Below, in pieces: positions 471-30,354 of a DNA stretch of 30,354 nucleotides. Both the position numbers and the translations under genes were made by a program. The stretch is from a virus, in UHGV virus genome UHGV-0236227; one strand, given 5' to 3'. The notes beneath the pieces were generated by a model. That model saw nothing but the letters and a program-made list of their open reading frames with translations. It did not search any database and was not told the origin of the DNA. Numbering within the stretch: position 1 is the stretch's first letter; every line of letters starts with the position of its first letter.

Positions 471-2941
471 CAGAATCCCCCAACAGTAAGGCGAGGAATA
501 ACGGCAAGAACAGACAGCGGCAACGGATCAAGCTGACGGATTTTTACACGTCCGTTTTTGCCCCAGTTACTGTCCAGTTTCACTTCTACTTTTCCGGTAG
601 CATCATCAACAGGATCATCGTAGAACTCGAATTCACGCTGTGGATATTCGTACCATTTACCGCCGGGCGTAGTCGCCCAGATGCCGCGACTGGCATTCAC
701 AACCAGAGTAACGGAGGGGATCACCTGTTTTTTGTCCAGCAGCGTTTCCTGTCCGTTAATGTTGATATCCAGTGTTTCGAATTCAGCAGTTATTGGCAGG
801 CCGATGTGCACTACAGCCCCCGGAGATTCCAGCGTGACGGCACCTCCGGAAACCACTTTCTGTGGTTCCACGTTCGCATCAGAGAGAATGTTTACGGTCT
901 GGCCTTCAAGATGAGACAGGCCTCCAAATGTCCGGCGCGCCATCTGCCAGTTCGTGGTGGCCACATTCCTGAGGGATGGCGGGACGTTCCTGTTAGCACG
1001 AACCACTACAGCGGTATTGCTGGTTACAGAAATAATGTCGCAACGTAATTCTTTTGACACCTCATCGCCAGTATCAGGATCAGTTCCGGTATAAGGGAAC
1101 TGTAGTTGCGCGCCGACATCACTACTGGTGAAGTACGCACCACCAGAAACACTGATTGTATATTCCGCGCGGTAATCCCATTCGCCAGAACCACCAGTGA
1201 TGGTCATCGTTCTGTCAGACGTATTTCTTCCATCATAGCTAAGGCCAGAATCAACAAAGAAAGCATCTTCATCGCTGGTAAATAAACGGCTGGACAGTCG
1301 CTCGATGTATCTCACTGTTTGCCCGTTAACGGTTCGGTTAATGACGAAATACACCGCATCTTCATTGCCTTCGCTGATACTGCATGTGCTTTCATATTTT
1401 CCGGTACTGGACTGTGGTGCCCATGCAAAAACCTGTTGATCACGCAAATAGGTCATCACCAGTAATTTACCGTCATCACGAATGCAGAAGGCGCTGGAGT
1501 AAGGGACAATAGAGAAGCACCAGTCAACAATGCTGTGCTTCTGAAAAAGATGATTGGCAAGGATAGTAAGGTCGTTCCCCTGATAGCCGTCAACATCGAA
1601 TGAGTAGGCCAGATCACGGACAACACTGCCTTTCTCCTGGACGAACAGAGCAATATTCGCCACGGCAATTGGTGGGACATTGCTCGAGCCATTTGATCCC
1701 TGAGAGCTGAATGCAAATGATGATGGGGTTAACACTTTGTTCTGGTCGCCGGTGATGACGTACTCACCTCCGGAAGTCAGCGCCACCAGAGAACCAACAT
1801 CAATCAGGTGGCGGATCTCATTAACCTGACGCCCGGCATAGGTGTAGATAATTCTGTCGTCATCCTGCGTAGGATTGCTTTTGCCAAAATCCTTATAATC
1901 CCCGGTACGGCTGGCCCAGATAGTCTGAGGGAACGCAGTCGATGCGGCGAAGTAAAGACGCTGTTGATAATAAACAACAGTGCCAGGATAACCATTAACA
2001 CTGTTCCAGGCATATTTAGCCCATTTATAGCTGGCATTATCCTCGCCAACGACCTGCGAAGGGATATAGGAAATCACCTCAGCAGTTGCAGTAGTGCCAT
2101 TTACAGCAGTTATACTGGCAATGCCAAAACCACTGTGCAGATACTCCCACTCAATGCCAGTATCATCATCACCGGATCCGCCCCAGCCATCCCATGATGT
2201 GCCTTCTGTATGCGAAGGGCGCAAAGTACCTGTTTTGCCTGCTGTAACGGCGCGATAGTAGTTACTGTCTGCACGGCGAATATCGCCAATCGACGTACTC
2301 TTACTGGTTTCCCATACCGGCACAGAATCCACTGCAGGCTGTTCCAGATAGAACAATTTGCCTACCTGCTCCGCGCCAAAAATAGAGGCGCTTGCCGTTA
2401 ACGTAATTGTCCCGGTGCTGGCGCTGGCATAAACCGTCACTGACTCGTCAATATTGATATCTTCAAATGGCCCGTTCTTCGTTACCACATCAACCAGTTG
2501 CCAGTTGTCATGCGCATAGCGACGCAACTCTTTCGGCGGGTATGCCGGATGAACCAGCGTAAGCACGTCGGCGCTTTGCGTGAATTTAATTCGGAACAGA
2601 TCGGCTTCAGTATATGGCGTGGCAATTTCATAAATAACATTGCTGCTGTTCAGCACCAACGCACCATCTTTGATAACGCGCATGTACTGGTGTCCGAACT
2701 CCAGAGCATAGGTCTGAACCGTCGAGAACTGGAACGGGATCAGGCGGCATTTCCGATTTGGGTATTTGGCGGCACCGACAAAACGCGTACCAGGTCGATT
2801 CTCAACGCCGCCATACTGCCGCACGATAAAGTTATCGCACTTGCGCAATGCCACCTGGTACTTCGCCATGTCAATACGCCCGTACAACGACGGTCCAATC
2901 TCACCACCGGCAAAGCTGGGCTGGATCCAACTGATAGCCAT
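470..2941 (-). CDS. Tail tubular protein B-like (T7 gp12-like)
   Basis: 823-aa ORF coupled to both neighbours; size and position match T7 gp12 (about 794 aa). Similarity is recalled, not computed. Confidence 0.55.
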   Translation of the reverse strand: MAISWIQPSFAGGEIGPSLYGRIDMAKYQVALRKCDNFIVRQYGGVENRPGTRFVGAAKYPNRKCRLIPFQFSTVQTYALEFGHQYMRVIKDGALVLNSSNVIYEIATPYTEADLFRIKFTQSADVLTLVHPAYPPKELRRYAHDNWQLVDVVTKNGPFEDINIDESVTVYASASTGTITLTASASIFGAEQVGKLFYLEQPAVDSVPVWETSKSTSIGDIRRADSNYYRAVTAGKTGTLRPSHTEGTSWDGWGGSGDDDTGIEWEYLHSGFGIASITAVNGTTATAEVISYIPSQVVGEDNASYKWAKYAWNSVNGYPGTVVYYQQRLYFAASTAFPQTIWASRTGDYKDFGKSNPTQDDDRIIYTYAGRQVNEIRHLIDVGSLVALTSGGEYVITGDQNKVLTPSSFAFSSQGSNGSSNVPPIAVANIALFVQEKGSVVRDLAYSFDVDGYQGNDLTILANHLFQKHSIVDWCFSIVPYSSAFCIRDDGKLLVMTYLRDQQVFAWAPQSSTGKYESTCSISEGNEDAVYFVINRTVNGQTVRYIERLSSRLFTSDEDAFFVDSGLSYDGRNTSDRTMTITGGSGEWDYRAEYTISVSGGAYFTSSDVGAQLQFPYTGTDPDTGDEVSKELRCDIISVTSNTAVVVRANRNVPPSLRNVATTNWQMARRTFGGLSHLEGQTVNILSDANVEPQKVVSGGAVTLESPGAVVHIGLPITAEFETLDININGQETLLDKKQVIPSVTLVVNASRGIWATTPGGKWYEYPQREFEFYDDPVDDATGKVEVKLDSNWGKNGRVKIRQLDPLPLSVLAVIPRLTVGGF

Positions 2942-3549
2942 CAGGACAACCTCGCAATGGTAAACTCATCAACCGGTGGCTGTGGTTCCTGTGATTCATT
3001 CTGGCTATGCGAGCCAGCACTAAGAATCACGCGATTGTACATATTGAGGGCAAACGTACCGAGGTCTGCATTCCCAGTCAGCGCCATGTTAATAGCTGCC
3101 GCAAGACGCCAGGCCAACGCCTCCATAAAAATGGCATCAAACATGTTCACATCTGAAACGCGAGAGACATACTTGAGCCATGCCTGCGGCTGGTCTGTGT
3201 AGATCAACTTTCCTGTTCCGTTGGTGTCTGCACCAACTTCGTACTGAACGCGCATTGCTGCTGTTGGATTGCGTACACCAGGAAGCATAATTTCAGTAAT
3301 GCGCAGACAATCGGACGGGTACTGGTACGCATATTCCCAGTCAGGCGGTGGATTGTTCGTATCTGCAAGCGCCACGCGTTTGGTAGCAAAGTTCCAGTCA
3401 AAATCAGAAAGCACAGCATCACGGCAGGCCTCAAAGTGCAGCGAACATTCCCCTGCTTCCTTGCTGGCTTCCGTCAGGCTGTTAATGCTGCGGCTGTTGC
3501 CAATATTGGACAGCGCACGATTACAGATCTCTACTACAGAGGCCATCAC
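2941..3549 (-). CDS. Tail tubular protein A-like (T7 gp11-like)
   Basis: 202-aa ORF; N-terminal segment (ALSNIGNSRSINSLTE) resembles the T7 gp11 N-terminus as recalled; size close to gp11 (196 aa); synteny with the gp12-like gene. Confidence 0.55.
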   Translation of the reverse strand: MMASVVEICNRALSNIGNSRSINSLTEASKEAGECSLHFEACRDAVLSDFDWNFATKRVALADTNNPPPDWEYAYQYPSDCLRITEIMLPGVRNPTAAMRVQYEVGADTNGTGKLIYTDQPQAWLKYVSRVSDVNMFDAIFMEALAWRLAAAINMALTGNADLGTFALNMYNRVILSAGSHSQNESQEPQPPVDEFTIARLS

Positions 3550-8715: not shown

Positions 8716-8744
8716 TTGACATTTAACGCACTAATTATTACCTT
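8716..8744 (+). promoter_or_regulatory. Candidate promoter (TTGACA -35) overlapping a TTACC-N5-GGTAA palindrome, pointing toward the tRNA
   Basis: TTGACA at 8716..8721; the -10 element is not clean (TAATTA/TACCTT candidates). Confidence 0.35.
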
Positions 8745-8752
8745 TCAGGTAA
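8738..8752. promoter_or_regulatory. TTACC-N5-GGTAA palindrome (putative operator)
   Basis: TTACCTTTCAGGTAA; identical 15-mer recurs at 29281..29295. Confidence 0.45.
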
Positions 8753-9074: not shown

Positions 9075-9151
9075 GTGGCATTAGCTCAGTTGGACAGAGC
9101 AACCGCCTTCTAAGCGGTTGGTCGCAGGTTCGAATCCTGCATGCCACGCCA
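9075..9151 (+). tRNA. tRNA-Arg (anticodon UCU), phage-encoded
   Basis: 77-nt cloverleaf folded by hand: 7-bp acceptor stem GTGGCAT/ATGCCAC, D-arm GCTC-AGTTGGACA-GAGC, anticodon stem ACCGC/GCGGT with loop CTTCTAA, T-arm GCAGG-TTCGAAT-CCTGC, encoded CCA end. Confidence 0.9.
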
Positions 9152-11272: not shown

Positions 11273-11868
11273 TGATTGCCATCCTGACGTTCTTTCAGTC
11301 TCTTCCTGGCTGCCGCTATGCGATCAGCAATTGTCACATTCACATTAACATCCAGGCGTTCTTTGAATGCGTTGACGTCGACGTGCTTACCAATCAGTTC
11401 GAGGTTCTTCACCTTGTCAGGCCATTTAATTTTTTTGAGGATGCCAACCAGCTCTTTCTCGTCTCCACGGCCTTCGAACATGTCGGCCAGTTCGAAACCT
11501 GTCAGGTACTGCCGCCAGACCTTAGGCCATTCCGAGACCGGCTTGATGCTCATATCGTCGTTGAGAATGTCAATCACGTCCATCTGGTCGATCTCCACCA
11601 GGCGCATGAGAACGTAATCAGCACTGACGCGCATTCGTTTGTTGCGCTCCTCCATCAACTCGGCAATCCGTTTTTGAATGCGTTCATCGCGCATCATGAC
11701 ACTGGCTTTAACTGCCGCTGTATTTGGGGAGAATCCTGCGTTAATCGCAGCCTGAGTCTGGTTTTCAGGCGTTTGGATGTATGACTGGCAATAAGCCTCC
11801 TGCATTGCTGTTAGTGGCTTAAATTGCGTTGATTTGCGTTTATAGGTTTTAGGTTCAGCAGGCATCAT
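11269..11868 (-). CDS. Terminase small subunit
   Basis: Directly upstream of and coupled to terL; conserved-looking core. Start uncertain: likely the internal ATG pair at 11868/11865 rather than the track start at 11946. Confidence 0.7.
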   Translation of the reverse strand: MMPAEPKTYKRKSTQFKPLTAMQEAYCQSYIQTPENQTQAAINAGFSPNTAAVKASVMMRDERIQKRIAELMEERNKRMRVSADYVLMRLVEIDQMDVIDILNDDMSIKPVSEWPKVWRQYLTGFELADMFEGRGDEKELVGILKKIKWPDKVKNLELIGKHVDVNAFKERLDVNVNVTIADRIAAARKRLKERQDGNQ

Positions 11869-11876
11869 AACCACCG

Positions 11877-11907
11877 TGGTAATAGTTACCGTTGTGGTAA
11901 TAGTACC
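11877..11907. repeat. Tandem copies of GTGGTAATAGT(T)ACC, each an inverted GGTAA...TTACC unit, just upstream of terS
   Basis: Two direct repeats 17 bp apart (11877..11890 and 11894..11907), between a terminator hairpin and the terS start codon. Confidence 0.45.
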
Positions 11908-15314: not shown

Positions 15315-15329
15315 TTACCCCTGAGGTAA
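15315..15329. promoter_or_regulatory. TTACC-N5-GGTAA palindrome (putative operator)
   Basis: TTACCCCTGAGGTAA; overlaps the RBS region of the downstream minus-strand gene. Confidence 0.45.
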
Positions 15330-15376
15330 TTAAAAACCACATAAGACACGAAATCAATAGATTTTAGAATATTTTA

Positions 15377-15391
15377 TTACCCAACAGGTAA
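15377..15391. promoter_or_regulatory. TTACC-N5-GGTAA palindrome (putative operator)
   Basis: TTACCCAACAGGTAA in the P-like / DUF1064-like intergenic region. Confidence 0.45.
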
Positions 15392-17273: not shown

Positions 17274-17288
17274 TTACCTTTGAGGTGC
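17274..17288. promoter_or_regulatory. TTACC-N5-GGTGC imperfect palindrome (putative operator)
   Basis: TTACCTTTGAGGTGC downstream of the Cro-like gene. Confidence 0.35.
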
Positions 17289-17343
17289 GAATAGATATGA
17301 AAAGACCGCCGGGTGGCGGTCTACAGAGGGTTGTGACTGGATA

Positions 17344-17574
17344 TCATGAGTAGAAGAAGTATGCCAGTTCTGCTTTTGAGCGCAGCCATTGTCTTGTTTT
17401 ACAGGCTTTAAAAAGCCCATTCATCAATACTTTACCTGGCATTTTGCGCTTACCTGTTAAGTGAGTCTGGATATAGTGACTCGTCGTTCCGGCTTCCTGT
17501 GCGAAGGCTTCACGCTCATCCGGAGTAAGTGCAAGCCAGTGCTTTTTGAAATCGAAATGTCCGTTATCGCTCAT
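17344..17574 (-). CDS. Cro-like HTH regulator (YdaS-like)
   Basis: 76-aa ORF divergent from the repressor-like gene; HTH-like segment (FAQEAGTTSHYIQTHLTGKR). Confidence 0.6.
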   Translation of the reverse strand: MSDNGHFDFKKHWLALTPDEREAFAQEAGTTSHYIQTHLTGKRKMPGKVLMNGLFKACKTRQWLRSKAELAYFFYS

Positions 17575-17610
17575 AGCTATTGCCTGATATTTATTTCAGA
17601 TAATAAATAT

Positions 17611-17673
17611 TCACCCATAAGGTAACAAAAATCAAGGATAGTTACCTATGAGGTGCATTTACCTGTTGGGTAA
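17611..17673. promoter_or_regulatory. Tripartite operator cluster in the cro / repressor intergenic region
   Basis: Three palindromes: TCACC-N5-GGTAA (17611..17625), TTACC-N5-GGTGC (17642..17656), TTACC-N5-GGTAA (17659..17673); centre spacings 31 and 17 bp. Confidence 0.6.
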
Positions 17674-17728
17674 TATTGCTTTAAATTGAATCATCTACTG
17701 ATTCATATATGAGGCGATTTTCCAGAAA

Positions 17729-18313
17729 ATGAAAAGTATCCAGGACGTCCGCAGGCAAAATCTCAACGACTTGATCGACCGTGAATTCAATGGTGTTCAG
17801 ACGCGGATGGCAGAAAAACTTGGAACTCAGGCAAATCTGGTAAACCGCTGGGCTCTTGGCAAGAAGGTTATCGGCGACCAGGTTGCACGAAAAATTGAAG
17901 CTGCCGCCAATAAACCCCGTAACTGGCTTGATATTGATCGTTCGCTTTCTCAGGAGGGTTTTCAGCCTGTCGGCCCGAGCGATATAGGTCAGTTGGCGGC
18001 TCACAACCTGGAACGCTGGATGAGCGAAAGCCGCGACCTTTCAACACAGGGAAAACTTCACCGCGCATCCGGCGTCGCCCAGGTGACAATCAGCCGCCTG
18101 TTAAACAATGAGGTCAGCGTTTCCATTTCCACTCTGGAGAATGTTGCATCCGCATTCGGGCGTCACGGATATGAACTACTGATTCACCCGCACGACCCTG
18201 CGACTATCAACTATGACCGCTCACGCTACGCATTGTTACCCGAAACCGAGAAAGCAAAGATCGAAAGTTACATTGAATTTGTCATCAACCAGAACGAAAA
18301 AAGCAAACAATAA
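17729..18313 (+). CDS. CI-like repressor candidate with two HTH-like segments and no recognisable S24 peptidase domain
   Basis: 194-aa ORF divergent from Cro-like gene; two XRE-type HTH-like segments; no Ser-Lys peptidase motifs recognised. Confidence 0.55.
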   Translation: MKSIQDVRRQNLNDLIDREFNGVQTRMAEKLGTQANLVNRWALGKKVIGDQVARKIEAAANKPRNWLDIDRSLSQEGFQPVGPSDIGQLAAHNLERWMSESRDLSTQGKLHRASGVAQVTISRLLNNEVSVSISTLENVASAFGRHGYELLIHPHDPATINYDRSRYALLPETEKAKIESYIEFVINQNEKSKQ

Positions 18314-18370
18314 AACTATAGTTTTCAGTAAGTAAGCCGCCTCATGGCGGCTTTTTTATTGCCAGATAGA

Positions 18371-18447
18371 TTACCTTACGGGTAATTTTTTTAACTCATA
18401 TCTATTGACACTAAACCAAATAAGCATAATTATTACCTCAACGGTAA
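18371..18447 (+). promoter_or_regulatory. pL-like promoter region with two TTACC-N5-GGTAA palindromes flanking a TTGACA -35 element
   Basis: Sites at 18371..18385 and 18433..18447; TTGACA at 18405..18410; directly upstream of the recombination operon. Confidence 0.5.
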
Positions 18448-23686: not shown

Positions 23687-23701
23687 ATACCTTTAAGGTA
23701 A
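23687..23701. promoter_or_regulatory. ATACC-N5-GGTAA palindrome (putative operator) upstream of int
   Basis: ATACCTTTAAGGTAA, 43 bp upstream of the integrase start. Confidence 0.4.
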
Positions 23702-23788: not shown

Positions 23789-23938
23789 TTAAATTAGTAT
23801 CTGAATAGGAATGAGTTGCTATGAGTTAGCTGTTAATCATTCCCACTCAATTATTTACGATAACCATAACCAATTGAGTGATAACATTTTTCCAAATCTC
23901 AATTTTTCCCGTACCGTTTTATATACCGTCACCGGAAA

Positions 23939-26032: not shown

Positions 26033-26058
26033 CCCGCAAAATATTGCGGGCTTTTTTT
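26033..26058 (+). terminator. Intrinsic terminator (CCCGCAA-aata-TTGCGGG plus 7 T) at the 3' end of the tailspike gene
   Basis: Canonical only in the plus orientation; the T-run overlaps the tailspike stop codon. Confidence 0.5.
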
Positions 26059-29000
26059 AACGTTCTTCCAGAGACTGAATCCGCTCTTTTATCTTATCCA
26101 TTTCTCTGCGCTGCCATGCTGCCTCGATATAGAATAAGAGATCAGGCCTGACCCCCCATCTAGATCCTGCTGGCGTTATTTCAACGCGCTCAATGATGTC
26201 TTCCATTACCATCACTGGATTATCATCCTCATCAACAATGATGCTCCCGTCATTATCAGTCAGCGGCATTTCCCTTTGGCCAGTAATGACGTCATCATAT
26301 ACTGCGGGATAATCGTCATAGCAAAGAAAGGCATAGCGGCATGTTGTGCTTTCTTCTTCCATGAGTCCGTGAGAAATAAGAACATCACGAAGTTGCTGCG
26401 CGATTACACCATGATGTATCCTCGCCCCTTCTTCCCCCTTTATAGCGACAGCGTTCAGCCATTTATAAGCGATATACCTGACGTCACCCCAGGCATCCAG
26501 CAATGCTTCGTCAGGAGAGACCGGCTCTGTCTTTAATGTTCCGTCACTGGTAACCACAGGATTGGAGCCAAGATAAACTGTCGAGAACCTGTTTCCCGGA
26601 CCACCAAGAGCATTTACATTATCAAGATAAGGTTTAACATCTCCGTTCTCAAAAAGATGTTCGAGTGCGTTATATACCGCGCGACGTGGAGTACTGCTTC
26701 CGGAACCATGCAACGTTATCATTGCACCATCTGCTGAAGACGTTGTTTCACCGCCGCTAACGATTAATCTCTGAGCGGTAACATCATCAGACGGTACTTT
26801 CTTCGCAATAATGGCGTAATTACCCTCAAGTTTGACTTCCGCGCGAACTTGTCCTGATGTACCTGCATGGACAGTCAGTGACTGGACGGCAACATCATCT
26901 GTGAAATCAACGGGTACAGGAACCGTCCTCACGCCTGACGTCGACATAAAAGTAGGAAGCGTTCTGTTAGGAGTGGCTCCGTAGACAAAATCCCTTGAAA
27001 CAAATTCTTCCTGTTTGATTTTCACCCTGAAACAATATAAATCAGCCGGGTGACCATCGTGAACATAAGGATATTTTCTGTTGTTATCCCCTATGCTCCA
27101 TGGGTTTAGAAAGTCTTCCCCACCGAAAATGTAGTACAGCCAGTTGTCTTTGATACAAACTGAACCAACACCAACCGCAGAGTTAACTATTCCGCCCTGA
27201 TAAATCTGATCAGTAACATTAACCCACTCTACATTATCCAGACTCCACTCATTGACGTTAACTCTGGTCATAAATGTTCTTGGATAATTTCCTGCATAAC
27301 GGTTATCAGGTTCTCCTCCTTCCCACTCACCAAATGCGCGCTCACTGCCAAAAATAATCAGCTCATCGCCAACTTTGGCAAAAGGAAGGTTTGAGTGATG
27401 AACATTATTTGGGAAGCGAAGAGAATTCCATGATGTACCTAAATCAGAGCTTCTGTGCAATGAACTACCGGGTTGAGTACTTAATGTCCCCCTGGTCGTC
27501 AGATACAGAATGCCATCATAATATTTTACACATGGCTCAGATGCATTCGCCTCATATTCTGCAGGTATGCGTCTGCGAACAAAGCTACCAGGAGAACCGA
27601 AAGCATCAGAGAAATAGAGTATCCCAAGCTCGCGTGGACCAATATCACCATTATGGTAGCCAACAGCAAAACTGTTATCGCTAATCGTCGCAAAACTGTG
27701 AATCTCAGTAACAGGAGTGCTTCCGTCAACAAAAGAAGGAATAGTTCCAAGACTGGTTTTTCTCCATGGTGACGAGTGAAATGATGTACCAAAACTCCAG
27801 TATCTACCCTCGTTATTCTGATCCACATCCTGGGTATTTTGCGTCGTAACTGTAAAAGTATTTTTATCAATAACAGTAGTCACCGTCATATTCCCGGTAA
27901 CACCTGTAACACCAGAGTTTGAGAAGTTGACAAAATCACCAGCAAATAATCCGTGATCAGTAATGCGAATATAAGCGACTTGCTGATTTGCTGCTTTCGT
28001 TATACCACCATAAGCGCGAAGGCTGCGACTCATTGGGCGATCCCACAACTCTGCAACCTGCAGTTTATTTCCGCTCACGGTCCGCGTCTCAATTACAGCA
28101 AAAAGGCGATTTCTGACAACCCCCATACTCATGCAGTGATAGTTAACTGTGGGATAGTTTTCATGTAAATCTGTAAGCCATTCCGGCGTTGTCCAGGTCT
28201 TCCCGTCATCTCCTGAGCGAACCCATGCAACATGGAGGTTATTTACACCATGGCGGTCTCCAGCCATAAAAGGCGCATAGATGACATTGTCATATACAAA
28301 CGTTTTATCCTGCGTCCAGGCGTTGTACCACGGTGTATCTGTAATTTTAAATAACTCTCCCTGGATAAAATCTTCAGAAGCATAAAAAAGAGGCTGGCCC
28401 GGTATTCTCTCAAATAAAAAACGAGCATTTTTAAATCGACTGACATCCGGAAGAGTTGATACTTTAAAAGTAAGCCCTAATCCGTCAATTTTATAACCTG
28501 GAGATGAGGCTTCAAGGCACGCGCTTATTGCAGTGGAATCGTCATTTATACCATCACCAACAGCTCCAAAATCTTTGGGGCTAATAGCATCACGCATTTT
28601 ATCCTGGAACGTTCGGTACACAGCCCCAGAACCATACTGAATAAACCAACCAAAACCACCAACAACCCCGGCGATTGCAGCATCGACATAATTACGCATT
28701 GAGCGATTATTTACAGCGTCCTGCTCAAATGATGGATCTGCAAGGTTAGAAATTTTGTTTTGCTTTGCATCGTAATATTTTGCAAGCAAAGATGGTTTCA
28801 TCAATGCACGTCTGAACCACCCAAAACATTGCTGGATCAGCATCGTCAGGTAGTCAAAGGCATCTTCATGCACTTCTGGGAAAAATTTTCCCTGATTGCG
28901 AAGGTCTGTCTCCTGCACTACATCAAGCACACGATCTATCGTAATTCGCCATCCAGTAGCAAGCGGAGACGGAAGAACCACAGAACCGCCACTATAAGTG

Positions 29001-29176
29001 CCCGCCCCAGTTACCGTATAACCGGTATCCAGAACCAATTCTGTTACGTTTCCGTTCAGGTCAGACACCTGAACAACCAGGTCTGATTTTCTGAAAATTC
29101 GAAAAGTATACGGAAACGATGTCGTAACGCCGTTACCTGTGTATTCGTTGTGGTCAACTTCGGTTGAGACCGTCAT
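26057..29176 (-). CDS. Tailspike / tail fibre with T7 gp17-like N-terminus, Asp-box beta-propeller-like centre and C-terminal intramolecular chaperone domain (endosialidase-like)
   Basis: 1039-aa ORF with GGAG Shine-Dalgarno; N-terminal particle-binding-like region; two Asp-box motifs (SGDDGKTW, SSDLGTSW); DFGAVGDG-type motif; C-terminal chaperone-like tail. Confidence 0.8.
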   Translation of the reverse strand: MTVSTEVDHNEYTGNGVTTSFPYTFRIFRKSDLVVQVSDLNGNVTELVLDTGYTVTGAGTYSGGSVVLPSPLATGWRITIDRVLDVVQETDLRNQGKFFPEVHEDAFDYLTMLIQQCFGWFRRALMKPSLLAKYYDAKQNKISNLADPSFEQDAVNNRSMRNYVDAAIAGVVGGFGWFIQYGSGAVYRTFQDKMRDAISPKDFGAVGDGINDDSTAISACLEASSPGYKIDGLGLTFKVSTLPDVSRFKNARFLFERIPGQPLFYASEDFIQGELFKITDTPWYNAWTQDKTFVYDNVIYAPFMAGDRHGVNNLHVAWVRSGDDGKTWTTPEWLTDLHENYPTVNYHCMSMGVVRNRLFAVIETRTVSGNKLQVAELWDRPMSRSLRAYGGITKAANQQVAYIRITDHGLFAGDFVNFSNSGVTGVTGNMTVTTVIDKNTFTVTTQNTQDVDQNNEGRYWSFGTSFHSSPWRKTSLGTIPSFVDGSTPVTEIHSFATISDNSFAVGYHNGDIGPRELGILYFSDAFGSPGSFVRRRIPAEYEANASEPCVKYYDGILYLTTRGTLSTQPGSSLHRSSDLGTSWNSLRFPNNVHHSNLPFAKVGDELIIFGSERAFGEWEGGEPDNRYAGNYPRTFMTRVNVNEWSLDNVEWVNVTDQIYQGGIVNSAVGVGSVCIKDNWLYYIFGGEDFLNPWSIGDNNRKYPYVHDGHPADLYCFRVKIKQEEFVSRDFVYGATPNRTLPTFMSTSGVRTVPVPVDFTDDVAVQSLTVHAGTSGQVRAEVKLEGNYAIIAKKVPSDDVTAQRLIVSGGETTSSADGAMITLHGSGSSTPRRAVYNALEHLFENGDVKPYLDNVNALGGPGNRFSTVYLGSNPVVTSDGTLKTEPVSPDEALLDAWGDVRYIAYKWLNAVAIKGEEGARIHHGVIAQQLRDVLISHGLMEEESTTCRYAFLCYDDYPAVYDDVITGQREMPLTDNDGSIIVDEDDNPVMVMEDIIERVEITPAGSRWGVRPDLLFYIEAAWQRREMDKIKERIQSLEER

Positions 29177-29280: not shown

Positions 29281-29295
29281 TTACCTTTCAGGTAA
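29281..29295. promoter_or_regulatory. TTACC-N5-GGTAA palindrome (putative operator) in the divergent tailspike / small-ORF region
   Basis: TTACCTTTCAGGTAA, identical to the site at 8738..8752. Confidence 0.45.
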
Positions 29296-29332
29296 TTTGC
29301 AAAACGTGCTGGATAGCAAACAAATTATTTGC

Positions 29333-29352
29333 TACTGTATAAATATACAGTT
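29333..29352. promoter_or_regulatory. LexA (SOS) box
   Basis: TACTGTATAAATATACAGTT, i.e. CTGT-N8-ACAG with AT-rich spacer; 21 bp upstream of the small-ORF ATG. Confidence 0.6.
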
Positions 29353-29372
29353 ATTGCATGGAGAAGATTAAG

Positions 29373-29630
29373 ATGCAGCAGTATCACTATCCACTGGAAG
29401 ACGGATTTACCGAAAGGATTCACACGCCGGGAGGCGTCAGGTCACTGGTGGAGGGATCGCACTTGATGAAATTACTCCGGGATCTCGATAAGGATGGATT
29501 TAATGTCGATGGCCCACTTGCCGAACTGACTGCACTGATTAACTACGTCACCAGCTCACAGATGTCTATGCAGGATCTGCAAACACATCTCGACTATTGT
29601 GCCGAACAATTACGAAAGCAAACCAGATAA
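29373..29630 (+). CDS. LexA-controlled small protein (Tum-like antirepressor candidate)
   Basis: 85 aa from ATG 29373 with GGAG Shine-Dalgarno at 9 nt (track start 29358 lies inside the promoter region); LexA box immediately upstream. Confidence 0.5.
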   Translation: MQQYHYPLEDGFTERIHTPGGVRSLVEGSHLMKLLRDLDKDGFNVDGPLAELTALINYVTSSQMSMQDLQTHLDYCAEQLRKQTR

Positions 29631-29661
29631 GGTTTGCAATTACCAAGTGGAGTGTTTATTA

Positions 29662-29676
29662 TTACCTTTGCGGTAA
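29662..29676. promoter_or_regulatory. TTACC-N5-GGTAA palindrome (putative operator)
   Basis: TTACCTTTGCGGTAA, 32 bp after the small-ORF stop. Confidence 0.45.
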
Positions 29677-29711
29677 ATTTACATCGAACTCCTCTTGTGC
29701 CATAGTAATCG

Positions 29712-29789
29712 GGCACTGGCAAAATCCAGTGCCGGGATTGGCGTCCCGGGTTACTAAGTGGCGCATACCACGCCAGACGTGGTTTTTTT
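29712..29789 (+). terminator. Structured RNA region: two GC hairpins, then an intrinsic terminator (29768..29789)
   Basis: GGCACTGG-N6-CCAGTGCC (29712..29733), CCGGGA-N6-TCCCGG (29732..29749), CCACG-N5-CGTGG plus 7 T (29768..29789). Confidence 0.5.
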
Positions 29790-29945
29790 ATGCGTTAAGC
29801 ACAGCTATATCCGAATTATGGTGGGCTGGGCAGGGGTCCGAAAGGACGCCGGTACCACTTAGGCCGGTACGCCAACCTTGTCCAGTTCACCACCAGTAAT
29901 TGGCGTTGCGGTGGTGATTAAAATCACTAAGTGGAGATAACCACC

Positions 29946-30354
29946 ATGGCTAATGCTCAAACTGCCATCTTCAAATTTGAATCTGTTAACCCTATCCGTT
30001 CCATCATTATCGATGGCCAACCATGGTTTGTAGCCCAAGACGTTTGTAGTGCGCTGCGTATCCAAAACGTCACCCAAGCACTTGAAAAACTGGATGATGA
30101 TGAAAGGTCTATGTTCAACATAGGGCATGAACATCGTGCAATTTTTGACAGCCGAGTAAAAGAGATCAACATTATCTCCGAGTCAGGCCTCTACACACTG
30201 ATCCTCCGCTGCCGCGACGCAGTGACACCAGGCACTATCCCCTACCGCTTTCGTAAATGGGTTACAGGTGAGGTTCTTCCTCAGATCCGCCGCACCGGAA
30301 GTTACATTAAAAACTCGCTCCCGCAGGAAGAACGCATAAAGATGGTTGCCGACC
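29946..30354 (+). CDS. Bro-N / AntA-family antirepressor (partial, runs off the window end)
   Basis: ATG 29946 with GGAG Shine-Dalgarno; at least 136 codons without a stop; Bro-N-like core (IIIDGQPWFVAQDVCSAL). Absent from the ORF track because no stop is reached. Confidence 0.75.
   Translation, partial: MANAQTAIFKFESVNPIRSIIIDGQPWFVAQDVCSALRIQNVTQALEKLDDDERSMFNIGHEHRAIFDSRVKEINIISESGLYTLILRCRDAVTPGTIPYRFRKWVTGEVLPQIRRTGSYIKNSLPQEERIKMVAD

Follow-up and report, generated by a model that had tools for sequence, protein, structure and literature searches.

The window analysed here, which is the whole 30,354-nt stretch of the virus genome UHGV-0236227, very probably derives from a temperate podophage of the phiV10/epsilon15 type (Uetakevirus), in which positions 17575-18313 form a Rep-Ant immunity switch that is induced by an antirepressor. 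Homology supports the 194-aa protein encoded there as the immunity repressor, Rep, which has no S24 autocleavage domain. Its inactivation most likely falls to Ant, a small antirepressor under SOS control. The evidence within the window is that of sequence and fold homology, of sites, of synteny and of conservation. The mechanism has already been worked out for the Salmonella phage SPC32H, with LexA control of SPC32H ant and non-cleavage of SPC32H Rep reportedly established by Kim & Ryu 2013 (J Virol 87:11775) and Kim et al. 2016 (PNAS), and the finding is correct but ordinary.

In the proposed mechanism the N-terminal helix-turn-helix (HTH) domain of Rep would bind TTACC-N5-GGTAA palindromes, with the protein acting, by homology with SPC32H Rep, as a tetramer by means of its middle and C-terminal domains. 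Binding at operator Oa, inside the core of the cro promoter, would block the early-right (replication) operon, binding at a 62-bp operator pair around PL, downstream of rep, would block the early-left (recombination) operon, and operators Ob and Oc would lie just upstream of a weak rep promoter. No autocleavage of Rep on RecA filaments is expected because the protein has no S24 peptidase domain. On DNA damage LexA would cleave itself and leave its box at 29333-29352, so that the 85-aa Ant could be made from 29373-29630. Ant would bind the C-terminal domain of Rep and convert the tetramer to dimers with poor affinity for DNA, allowing lytic transcription to begin.

The predicted antirepressor and its LexA box

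The ant gene (29373-29630, plus strand) lies around 11 kb from rep in the same window and, as in SPC32H, is divergent from the tailspike gene. It begins at the second ATG of the ORF 29358-29630, with a Shine-Dalgarno sequence GGAG at 29360-29363. Its product matches 5D50_E, 'Anti-repressor protein', with an E value of 4.4e-47, being 88% identical to SPC32H Ant and 100% identical to a 'hypothetical protein' of the E. coli phage vB_EcoP_ZX5 (ZX5). No Pfam family was matched by Ant, 5D50_E was the sole match among PDB sequences, and no second copy was found within the window. Nearly the same phage records contain the two proteins, with Rep in 37 and Ant in 35.

A LexA box, TACTGTATAAATATACAGTT, is found at 29333-29352 on the plus strand, 20 bp before the ant ATG, with two mismatches to the 20-nt consensus, and it is the sole match in the 30-kb window, where 0 were expected. 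It overlaps a candidate ant promoter with predicted hexamers TGGATA (-35, 29310-29315) and TACTGT (-10, 29333-29338). The box aligns with that of SPC32H, and six lineages have kept both it and a Rep operator upstream of it, which in the window is a perfect copy at 29281-29295 between the tailspike gene and ant. Within BUCT711 the ant-proximal box is a variant, ATATGTATATATATACAGT, which is recovered by alignment and missed by a strict CTGT-N8-ACAG scan. One other candidate LexA box, CTGATATTTATTTCAG in the leader of the cro-like gene (17584-17599), was rejected, as CTGA/TCAG replaces CTGT/ACAG and it is kept in the phiV10/Tyrion lineage only. The preliminary description of this DNA had proposed induction by an antirepressor, and that interpretation gains support because an Ant homologue stands behind a LexA box in the window. 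It is known that mitomycin C raises the titre of ZX5 from 1e7 to 1e9 (PMC9782041).

How Ant may act can be judged from SPC32H, for which the Rep-Ant complex has been crystallised (PDB 5D4Z, 5D50). SPC32H Rep binds DNA as a tetramer, which comes apart when an Ant tetramer takes up two Rep dimers (PMC9638917), with the CAD domain mediating Ant binding (PMC9986798). Passages in secondary accounts add that SPC32H Rep is uncleaved in SOS and that Ant releases it from operator DNA (PMC9638917; bioRxiv 2025.11.27.690993).

A possible second antirepressor gene of the Bro-N type

Downstream of ant there is a further module that may be of importance to induction. An isrK-like sRNA with a terminator (29713-29789, plus strand; Rfam RF01394, 67.7 bits against a gathering threshold of 50) and a C4 antisense-type RNA (29814-29897, plus strand; RF01695, 66 bits against 45) lie directly upstream of the 5' part of a Bro-N antirepressor gene (29946-30354, plus strand; Pfam Bro-N, E 3.7e-20), which is cut by the window end. 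This is the composition of an isrK/C4 module, in which, by analogy, the RNAs would control the gene. A Rep operator at 29662-29676, downstream of ant, overlaps or abuts two candidate promoters, TTGCAA-17-TATTAT (29634-29662) and TTTACA-17-CATAGT (29678-29706). Since no terminator separates ant from isrK, transcription under LexA control could continue into isrK. The N-terminal part of the Bro-N protein encoded in the window is 67% identical to ZX5 ORF4, of which residues 150-223 resemble Ant with 42% identity (E 1e-19), and the full protein in ZX5 and HEMP4 ends in this Ant-like domain; the position of the domain falls beyond the window end.

It could be that in the E. coli lineage the Bro-N protein (29946 onwards), gated by the isrK and C4 RNAs, is the main inducer and the small Ant is auxiliary or redundant. 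Overexpression of ZX5 ORF4 gave prophage counts around 1000-fold lower and reduced rep mRNA by 75%, and the authors of that work name the Bro-N protein as the antirepressor and leave the small Ant as 'hypothetical' (PMC9782041). The resemblance of ORF4 both to Ant and to the ORF in the window, along with possible read-through from ant, is in keeping with such a role, as is the likeness of the RNAs to those of Gifsy-1 isrK-orf45-anrP, where the sRNA turns on translation of the antirepressor (PMC4825925). However, the ZX5 experiment was a gross overexpression of a GST fusion, SPC32H and BUCT711 have the small Ant only, and the 'putative anti-repressor' of Tyrion, encoded by a gene of its own (gp20), is without an Ant-like domain. 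The LexA box is moreover on the small-ant promoter in all lineages and the small Ant is far better conserved (88% versus 42%), which leaves the Bro-N protein an improbable main inducer.

With the small Ant as the inducer, the E. coli lineage may have a two-stage cascade, in which LexA releases Ant and the loss of Rep at 29662 then opens an isrK/C4-gated Bro-N::Ant fusion. The fusion may be a paralogous second antirepressor that locks in induction.

Rep, a repressor without an autocleavage domain

The rep gene (17729-18313, plus strand) is identified by homology to 5D50_A, Pfam HTH_3, an AlphaFold (AF2) model and Foldseek. Its product is homologous over its full length to the SPC32H Rep whose crystal structure is known (5D50_A; phmmer E 3.5e-42 for residues 1-190), with an approximate plan of an N-terminal HTH DNA-binding domain (1-72), a linker (73-84), an HTH-fold middle domain (85-152) and a C-terminal domain for tetramerisation and Ant binding (153-194). 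Pfam matches HTH_3 in two stretches, along with HTH_26, LacI-HTH and YdaS-like families. Two HTH-like segments had been noted previously, and both are present, although the second corresponds to what in SPC32H Rep is described as the middle dimerisation domain and not a second DNA-binding domain (PMC9986798).

The preliminary description also held that this protein has no S24 domain and that RecA-stimulated autocleavage is unlikely, both of which stand. Profile-HMM searches and structure prediction find HTH folds and no S24 domain: there is no Pfam match to Peptidase_S24 in the 194-aa protein even at E<=1, none of its 86 homologues has an S24 Pfam domain, and the LexA/CI catalytic domain is absent from the PDB matches of the Rep model in Foldseek, which are headed by 5D50/5D4Z (SPC32H Rep) and otherwise comprise small HTH proteins only. 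The AF2 model is all-helical, with an HTH domain at 1-68, a linker, an HTH-like domain at 85-151 and a C-terminal helix at 172-193, and is of moderate quality (pLDDT 77.7, pTM 0.41), the beta-strand of the C-terminal domain not being reproduced. A cryptic S24 domain is ruled out by Pfam, the 86 homologues, the model and Foldseek together.

Inactivation of Rep by proteolysis, whether RecA-stimulated self-cleavage at an unrecognised site or attack by a protease (ImmA/IrrE-type or Lon/ClpXP), has general precedent only, and the flexible linker 73-84, with pLDDT<50, would be an accessible cleavage site. It is nonetheless very unlikely, as no S24 domain is detected by Pfam, by fold or in any homologue, the three domains of SPC32H Rep account for the whole 194 aa, no metalloprotease gene is annotated beside rep in phiV10, SPC32H, Tyrion or BUCT711, and a complete LexA-Ant module is present.

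That the protein is the immunity repressor is further supported by its near identity (99.5%) to phiV10p40 and ZX5 ORF21, since on overexpression of ORF21 no free phage was produced and lysis-gene transcripts fell by >99.9% (PMC9782041). These data and the SPC32H homology are in agreement with the earlier view of a repressor without an autocleavage domain, and no other candidate for the immunity repressor was found in annotated relatives. By alignment, F184 is invariant and position 181 (Y181) is aromatic among the homologues, which are the positions of F190 and F187 in SPC32H Rep (PMC9986798), and the aromatic residues of the predicted tetramer interface are conserved. In an alignment of seven Rep homologues the recognition-helix motif NLVNRW does not vary, and three of the seven come from phage lineages whose genomes share the same operator half-site.

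The idea that the 194-aa protein is an XRE/HigA-type antitoxin or an accessory regulator draws on weak resemblance, in NCBIfam and Pfam, to HigA, HipB and YdaS-type HTH proteins and on the GenBank record of phage BP9 ('plasmid maintenance system antidote protein VapI'), but it has next to no likelihood and the antitoxin labels were rejected, given that these HTH similarities are all below cut-offs, there is no toxin partner gene, rep occupies the place of cI, flanked by divergent early operons whose promoters both carry operators, the 99.5%-identical ZX5 ORF21 has direct repression data and the protein is homologous to the experimentally defined SPC32H Rep.

Operators between cro and rep

Rep is encoded divergently from a 76-aa Cro-like protein (17344-17574, minus strand), with a 154-bp spacer (17575-17728) between the two genes. 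The 76-aa protein matches PHROG 35, 'transcriptional repressor', with an E value of 5.6e-13, and Pfam, NCBIfam and PDB sequence searches with it gave nothing significant; it is called Cro-like only from PHROG 35 and from its position, in synteny with phiV10p41 and SPC32H_042. The gene opens the early-right operon and is followed by an intrinsic terminator (17303-17322, minus strand), a 66-aa gene and DnaT-like and lambda-P-like replication genes. On the other side an intrinsic terminator follows rep (18334-18360, plus strand) and is also annotated in phiV10. A degenerate operator-like site, TTACCtttgaGGTGC, is found 3' of the terminator of the cro-like gene (17274-17288), with one at the equivalent place in SPC32H and HEMP4/Tyrion.

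The spacer holds three TTACC-N5-GGTAA palindromes at 17611-17625, 17642-17656 and 17659-17673, and the earlier account of divergent genes separated by a 154-bp spacer with three operator-like palindromes is borne out by the ORFs, the coordinates and the motif copies. Oa (17611-17625, TCACCcataaGGTAA) has one mismatch, TCACC..GGTAA, and lies in the spacer of a candidate minus-strand cro promoter, of which the -35 TTGATT (17635-17630) is invariant in a five-lineage alignment and the -10 GAATAT (17612-17607) is predicted from sequence. Ob (17642-17656, TTACCtatgaGGTGC) has two mismatches, TTACC..GGTGC, with the right half degenerate; its position is maintained, and the copies of SPC32H and BUCT711 match the motif perfectly. 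Oc (17659-17673, TTACCtgttgGGTAA) is perfect and lies just upstream of a candidate rep promoter, TTTAAA(17680-17685)-17-TCATAT(17703-17708), which is likewise predicted from its sequence only. The three sites hold their position in phiV10, Tyrion, SPC32H and the Klebsiella phage BUCT711, and in the five-lineage alignment the half-sites are invariant and the N5 spacers variable. The arrangement is that of a lambda-like tripartite OR, in which three related operators lie where the repressor and cro promoters diverge. Promoters throughout the window are consensus matches only, and the overlap of the spacer operators with promoters is accordingly a prediction from consensus hexamers.

Operators across the window

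The motif is far more frequent in the window than in shuffles of it, with 9 perfect TTACC-N5-GGTAA copies (0.035 expected), 12 copies at <=1 mismatch (0.97 expected) and 30 at <=2 mismatches (8.7 expected). All 12 sites with at most one mismatch are intergenic, and they fall in about eight loci, which include two operator pairs that are each 62 bp apart and each flank a promoter. One of these pairs constitutes OL/PL (18371-18447, plus strand), where operators at 18371-18385 and 18433-18447, 62 bp centre to centre, flank the predicted early-left promoter PL of the recombination genes, TTGACA(18405)-17-AATTAT(18433); the arrangement is likewise found in SPC32H, Tyrion and BUCT711. The other pair (15315-15391, minus strand) comprises 15377-15391 and 15315-15329, with a candidate leftward promoter TTGATT-17-TTTAAT between them, after the replication-gene terminator, and syntenic 62-bp pairs are again found in SPC32H, Tyrion and BUCT711. 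The geometry of such promoter-flanking pairs may suit one looped tetramer.

Further sites are found well away from the early promoters. Two adjacent operators 18 bp apart (11868-11900) lie after a terminator, on the start codon region of the small terminase gene, and have syntenic counterparts ahead of terS in SPC32H (12-26) and Tyrion (67-99). A single perfect operator at 8738-8752, upstream of the head-gene operon, is syntenic in SPC32H (3175), Tyrion (3969) and BUCT711 (34570). A variant site, ATACCtttaaGGTAA, at 23687-23701, has the attP core (23834-23850) on one side and the integrase start (GTG 23644) on the other; it is identical in SPC32H, HEMP4, Tyrion and BUCT711, and it is uncertain if this is a Rep operator or an attP arm element.

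The positions of the operator loci are conserved from Salmonella to Klebsiella phages. Rep may silence the phage genome widely, beyond OL and OR, which taken jointly with the two-stage antirepressor cascade of the E. coli lineage is a tentative and somewhat doubtful proposal. Such silencing would involve the motif loci at cro/rep and PL, at the promoter that follows the replication genes, at the start of the terminase gene, at the head operon, between the tailspike gene and ant, at the isrK promoter and perhaps at int.

Comparison with known systems

Coliphage 186 and the Gifsy phages were first offered as the comparators, but the fitting comparator is instead the SPC32H Rep-Ant system, which is of the same genus and has the same gene order. 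In both phages Rep has the same three-domain plan and no S24 domain, the ant promoter has a LexA box, ant and the tailspike gene diverge, as do rep and the cro-like gene, and the half-sites TTACC/GGTAA, the three-site OR and the operator-flanked PL are shared. Against this, the operator spacers of the window contain G/C whereas those of SPC32H are A/T-only, OL has two sites in the window and three in SPC32H, and the isrK/C4 and Bro-N module downstream of ant is absent from SPC32H. Rep is only 43% identical overall to its SPC32H counterpart (53% in the N-terminal domain, 32% in the middle domain and 47% in the C-terminal Ant-binding domain), and because of this the pairing of Ant with Rep is one that we infer.

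The account of ZX5 treats the Bro-N protein ORF4 as the antirepressor, without mention of LexA, SPC32H or the small Ant (PMC9782041). ZX5 and phiV10, in which p40 is a 'putative transcriptional repressor', are essentially the same phage type as the window, the small Ant being identical and the region 97% identical in nucleotides, but the N-terminus of Bro-N is less alike.

With lambda CI and OR-OL the window has in common a divergent repressor and cro across three operators, a second operator set at the leftward early promoter, lambdoid terminators and a gene order with a lambda-P-like replication gene and a RecT recombination gene. It differs from lambda in that Rep is without S24 domain and RecA-stimulated cleavage would not occur, the operators are 15-bp TTACC-N5-GGTAA sites, and further operators are found at late, head, terminase and antirepressor loci.

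The same logic, in which a LexA-repressed small antirepressor inactivates a non-cleavable repressor, is that of N15 AntC. It is also that of coliphage 186 CI/Tum, Gifsy and Fels-2, where a non-cleavable repressor is paired with a small antirepressor from a LexA-repressed promoter (Lemire et al. 2011, PMC3121763). The Rep type differs from these as a tetramer built from an HTH domain, an HTH-fold dimerisation domain and a p53-like tetramerisation domain, with Ant acting on the C-terminal domain without competing for the DNA-binding surface (PMC9638917; PMC9986798). In Pfam and PDB searches Rep matched only HTH families and SPC32H Rep, and Ant matched only 5D50_E.

An isrK/C4-type module of the same order is the c4-icd-ant of P1 immI. 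The isrK-orf45-anrP region of Gifsy-1 similarly has an isrK sRNA with a terminator, a C4 region and a Bro-N antirepressor gene (Hershko-Shalev et al. 2016, PMC4825925). Unlike these, the module of the window is directly behind a LexA-controlled small ant with a Rep operator between, and the Bro-N protein of its close relatives has an Ant-like C-terminal domain.

Distribution and significance

Of 5,426 complete E. coli genomes, 540 contain the cassette at >=95% identity, and a common E. coli prophage type would use LexA-controlled antirepression and not repressor autocleavage. In its biology the case goes no further in essentials than SPC32H, unless the distributed operators or the second, RNA-gated Ant paralogue should prove functional. 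Correct annotation of Ant is of importance in predicting SOS-inducible prophages and in engineering phiV10-based reporter phages. At present rep is labelled only 'helix-turn-helix domain-containing protein' in these genomes, and in phiV10, ZX5 and their relatives the small Ant still goes under 'hypothetical'.

Layout of the switch region

The phage is a temperate podophage of the phiV10/epsilon15 type, genus Uetakevirus, and between 17200 and 18500 it is 97-98% identical to BP9, PAS61, phiV10, ZX5 and HEMP4 and ~77% identical to Enterobacter phage Tyrion. In this region a Cro-like gene of 76 aa (17344-17574, minus strand) and rep, a gene of 194 aa (17729-18313, plus strand), are divergent with a spacer of 154 bp between them. 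To the left of the Cro-like gene there is a terminator, a 66-aa gene and then DnaT-like and lambda P-like replication genes, to the right of rep a terminator and a strong promoter are followed by two small genes and then by the genes for a YqaJ exonuclease and RecT; with replication genes on the one side and recombination genes on the other, rep therefore takes the place that cI has in a lambdoid layout. Among 5,426 complete genomes of E. coli, 540 carry the rep-cro cassette at an identity of at least 95%, with rep labelled only 'helix-turn-helix domain-containing protein'.

The repressor

The preliminary description gave the 194-aa protein (Rep) two HTH-like segments and no recognisable S24 peptidase domain, and profile searches and structure prediction agree, with HTH matches, no S24 and an all-helical model. 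Pfam places HTH_3 on two stretches (the best being residues 106-147) and a YdaS/Cro-type HTH at residues 21-61, with no match to Peptidase_S24 in Rep even at E<=1, nor is S24 found in any of 86 homologues, all of ~190-200 aa and from enterobacterial prophages. In the AlphaFold model (21 homologues as input, pLDDT 77.7) residues 1-68 form an HTH domain and residues 85-151 another domain with an HTH fold, the two are joined by a linker that is disordered (74-82), and a long helix lies at the C-terminus (172-193). A PDB sequence search matched a single family, that of Rep from Salmonella phage SPC32H (5D50 chain A over residues 1-190 at E 3.5e-42, and 5D4Z over residues 89-190), and Foldseek agrees. 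SPC32H Rep binds DNA through its N-terminal domain, dimerises through the middle one and has a C-terminal CAD ('TetDloop') that tetramerises via F187 and F190 and is also the binding site for the antirepressor (PMC9986798). Identity to it is 53% in the N-terminal, 32% in the middle and 47% in the C-terminal domain, and the positions of F187 and F190 are taken by Y181 and F184, the latter invariant across the family. The two HTH-like segments are therefore confirmed, although homology with SPC32H Rep assigns DNA binding to the first alone.

Operators and promoters

The three operator-like palindromes described in the 154-bp spacer are 15-bp copies of TTACC-N5-GGTAA, at 17611-17625 (one mismatch), 17642-17656 (two mismatches) and 17659-17673 (perfect). 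The window has nine perfect copies against 0.035 expected, and 12 with up to one mismatch against 0.97 expected, all 12 of which are intergenic. When the spacer is aligned across five lineages (the window, phiV10, Tyrion, SPC32H and Klebsiella phage BUCT711) the half-sites of the three operators are invariant and their spacers and flanks drift, which is a clean phylogenetic footprint; a half-site common to the relatives fits with the recognition-helix motif NLVNRW, invariant among seven aligned Rep homologues.

Between the first and second operators is an invariant AAAAATCAA, read on the minus strand as TTGATT, with GAATAT 17 bases downstream, a placement by which the first operator falls within the core of the likely cro promoter. 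A simple promoter scan offers the neighbouring TTGTTA-17-TATTAT instead, with the consequence for the first operator unchanged. For rep, a weak candidate promoter (TTTAAA-17-TCATAT, 17680-17708) starts just past the third operator; we infer both promoter assignments from sequence. The cro leader also carries CTGATATTTATTTCAG (17584-17599), a CTG-N10-CAG palindrome kept in the phiV10/Tyrion lineage only, which its CTGA/TCAG ends rule out as a canonical LexA box. A degenerate operator-like site, TTACCtttgaGGTGC (17274-17288), lies just past the cro terminator and ahead of the 66-aa gene, its position is kept in SPC32H, HEMP4 and Tyrion, and it could act as a gate on read-through into the replication genes.

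The motif is not limited to this spacer and the early-left promoter, PL, but occupies about eight intergenic loci in total. One pair, at 18371 and 18433 (18371-18447), flanks PL (TTGACA-17-AATTAT), another at 15391/15329 (15315-15391) flanks a candidate promoter past the replication genes, and the spacing is exactly 62 bp in both. Two adjacent operators (11868-11900) lie on the small-terminase start, past a terminator, and single operators are found ahead of the head operon (8738-8752), between the tailspike gene and ant, the small antirepressor gene (29281-29295), and downstream of ant (29662-29676), the last overlapping or abutting two candidate promoters just upstream of the isrK/C4 RNAs. 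A variant site (23687-23701) lies between int and the attP core, and SPC32H, Tyrion and BUCT711 have the motif at the syntenic loci. The attP core itself, ATTGAGTGGGAATGATT (23834-23850), lies unbroken between int and the lysis genes, thus the window is in phage (unintegrated or circular) configuration and is not a prophage junction; it is the core reported for ZX5, whose integration site is the guaA 3' end.

Antirepressor and induction

Induction by way of an antirepressor had been proposed, and an SPC32H-type ant behind a LexA box is found inside the window. The box, TACTGTATAAATATACAGTT (29333-29352), is eleven kilobases from rep and divergent from the tailspike gene (26057-29176, minus strand), it departs from the 20-nt LexA consensus at two positions, is the only match in the window and had no counterpart in 100 shuffles. 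Twenty bases past it starts the 85-aa ORF of ant (29373-29630), with a GGAG Shine-Dalgarno ahead, the product of which matches 5D50 chain E 'Anti-repressor protein' (E 4.4e-47) and is 88% identical to the annotated SPC32H ant; ZX5 has the identical protein (100%), labelled 'hypothetical protein'. The order in SPC32H is the same, with tailspike, Rep operator, LexA box TACTGTATGTTTATACAGTG and then ant. Six lineages keep the LexA box together with the Rep operator upstream of it and a CTGGATA block, likely the -35 of ant, and homologues of Rep and Ant occur in 37 and 35 phage records respectively, which are nearly the same records. Kim and Ryu reportedly found in 2013 that SPC32H Rep stays uncleaved during SOS and that one base change in its LexA box makes Ant constitutive.

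By homology, Rep tetramers would keep the early promoters closed and would be unable to autocleave; upon DNA damage LexA would be lost from the ant promoter, and Ant would then bind the C-terminal domain of Rep, splitting the tetramer into dimers with poor DNA binding. In the window lineage Ant is predicted to bind Rep and LexA to bind the box, and the promoter starts are likewise predicted. Splitting of Rep tetramers by Ant is described in PMC9638917 and bioRxiv 2025.11.27.690993. In the near-identical phage ZX5, overexpression of ORF21, which is 99.5% identical to Rep, abolished free phage and lowered holin and endolysin mRNA by >99.9%, and mitomycin C raised the titre from 1e7 to 1e9 (PMC9782041). 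The preliminary description is correct both in what it observed and in its antirepressor interpretation; SPC32H, of the same genus, is a better comparator than coliphage 186 or the Gifsy phages. The finding is an ordinary one and already known, as the mechanism is published and the repressor has been annotated in phiV10 and tested in ZX5.

The region downstream of ant

Downstream of ant follow an isrK-family sRNA (RF01394) and a C4 antisense-type RNA (RF01695), together at 29713-29897, and then the 5' part of a Bro-N gene (29946-30354) cut by the window end. The organisation is that of the Gifsy-1 isrK-orf45-anrP locus; SPC32H lacks this module. In ZX5 the complete Bro-N protein, ORF4, is named anti-repressor (PMC9782041), and the small Ant shares 42% identity with the C-terminal domain of ORF4 (E 1e-19); such Bro-N::Ant-like fusions are found at 2746-3441 in ZX5 and in two copies, 34051-33818 and 1848-1615, in HEMP4. 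With an Ant-like C-terminus on the Bro-N protein, the E. coli/phiV10 lineage seems to have two Ant paralogues, probably under different controls.

Elsewhere in the window, the 1039-aa tailspike has a full set of endosialidase domains and an S74 chaperone, which suggests that this phiV10-like phage is specific for polysialic acid (K1 capsule), whereas its relatives usually target O-antigen. Between the terminase and head operons, and on the other strand from the structural genes, is a tRNA gene (9075-9148, plus strand; Rfam tRNA, 73 bits), and SPC32H has a tRNA-Arg at the matching place.
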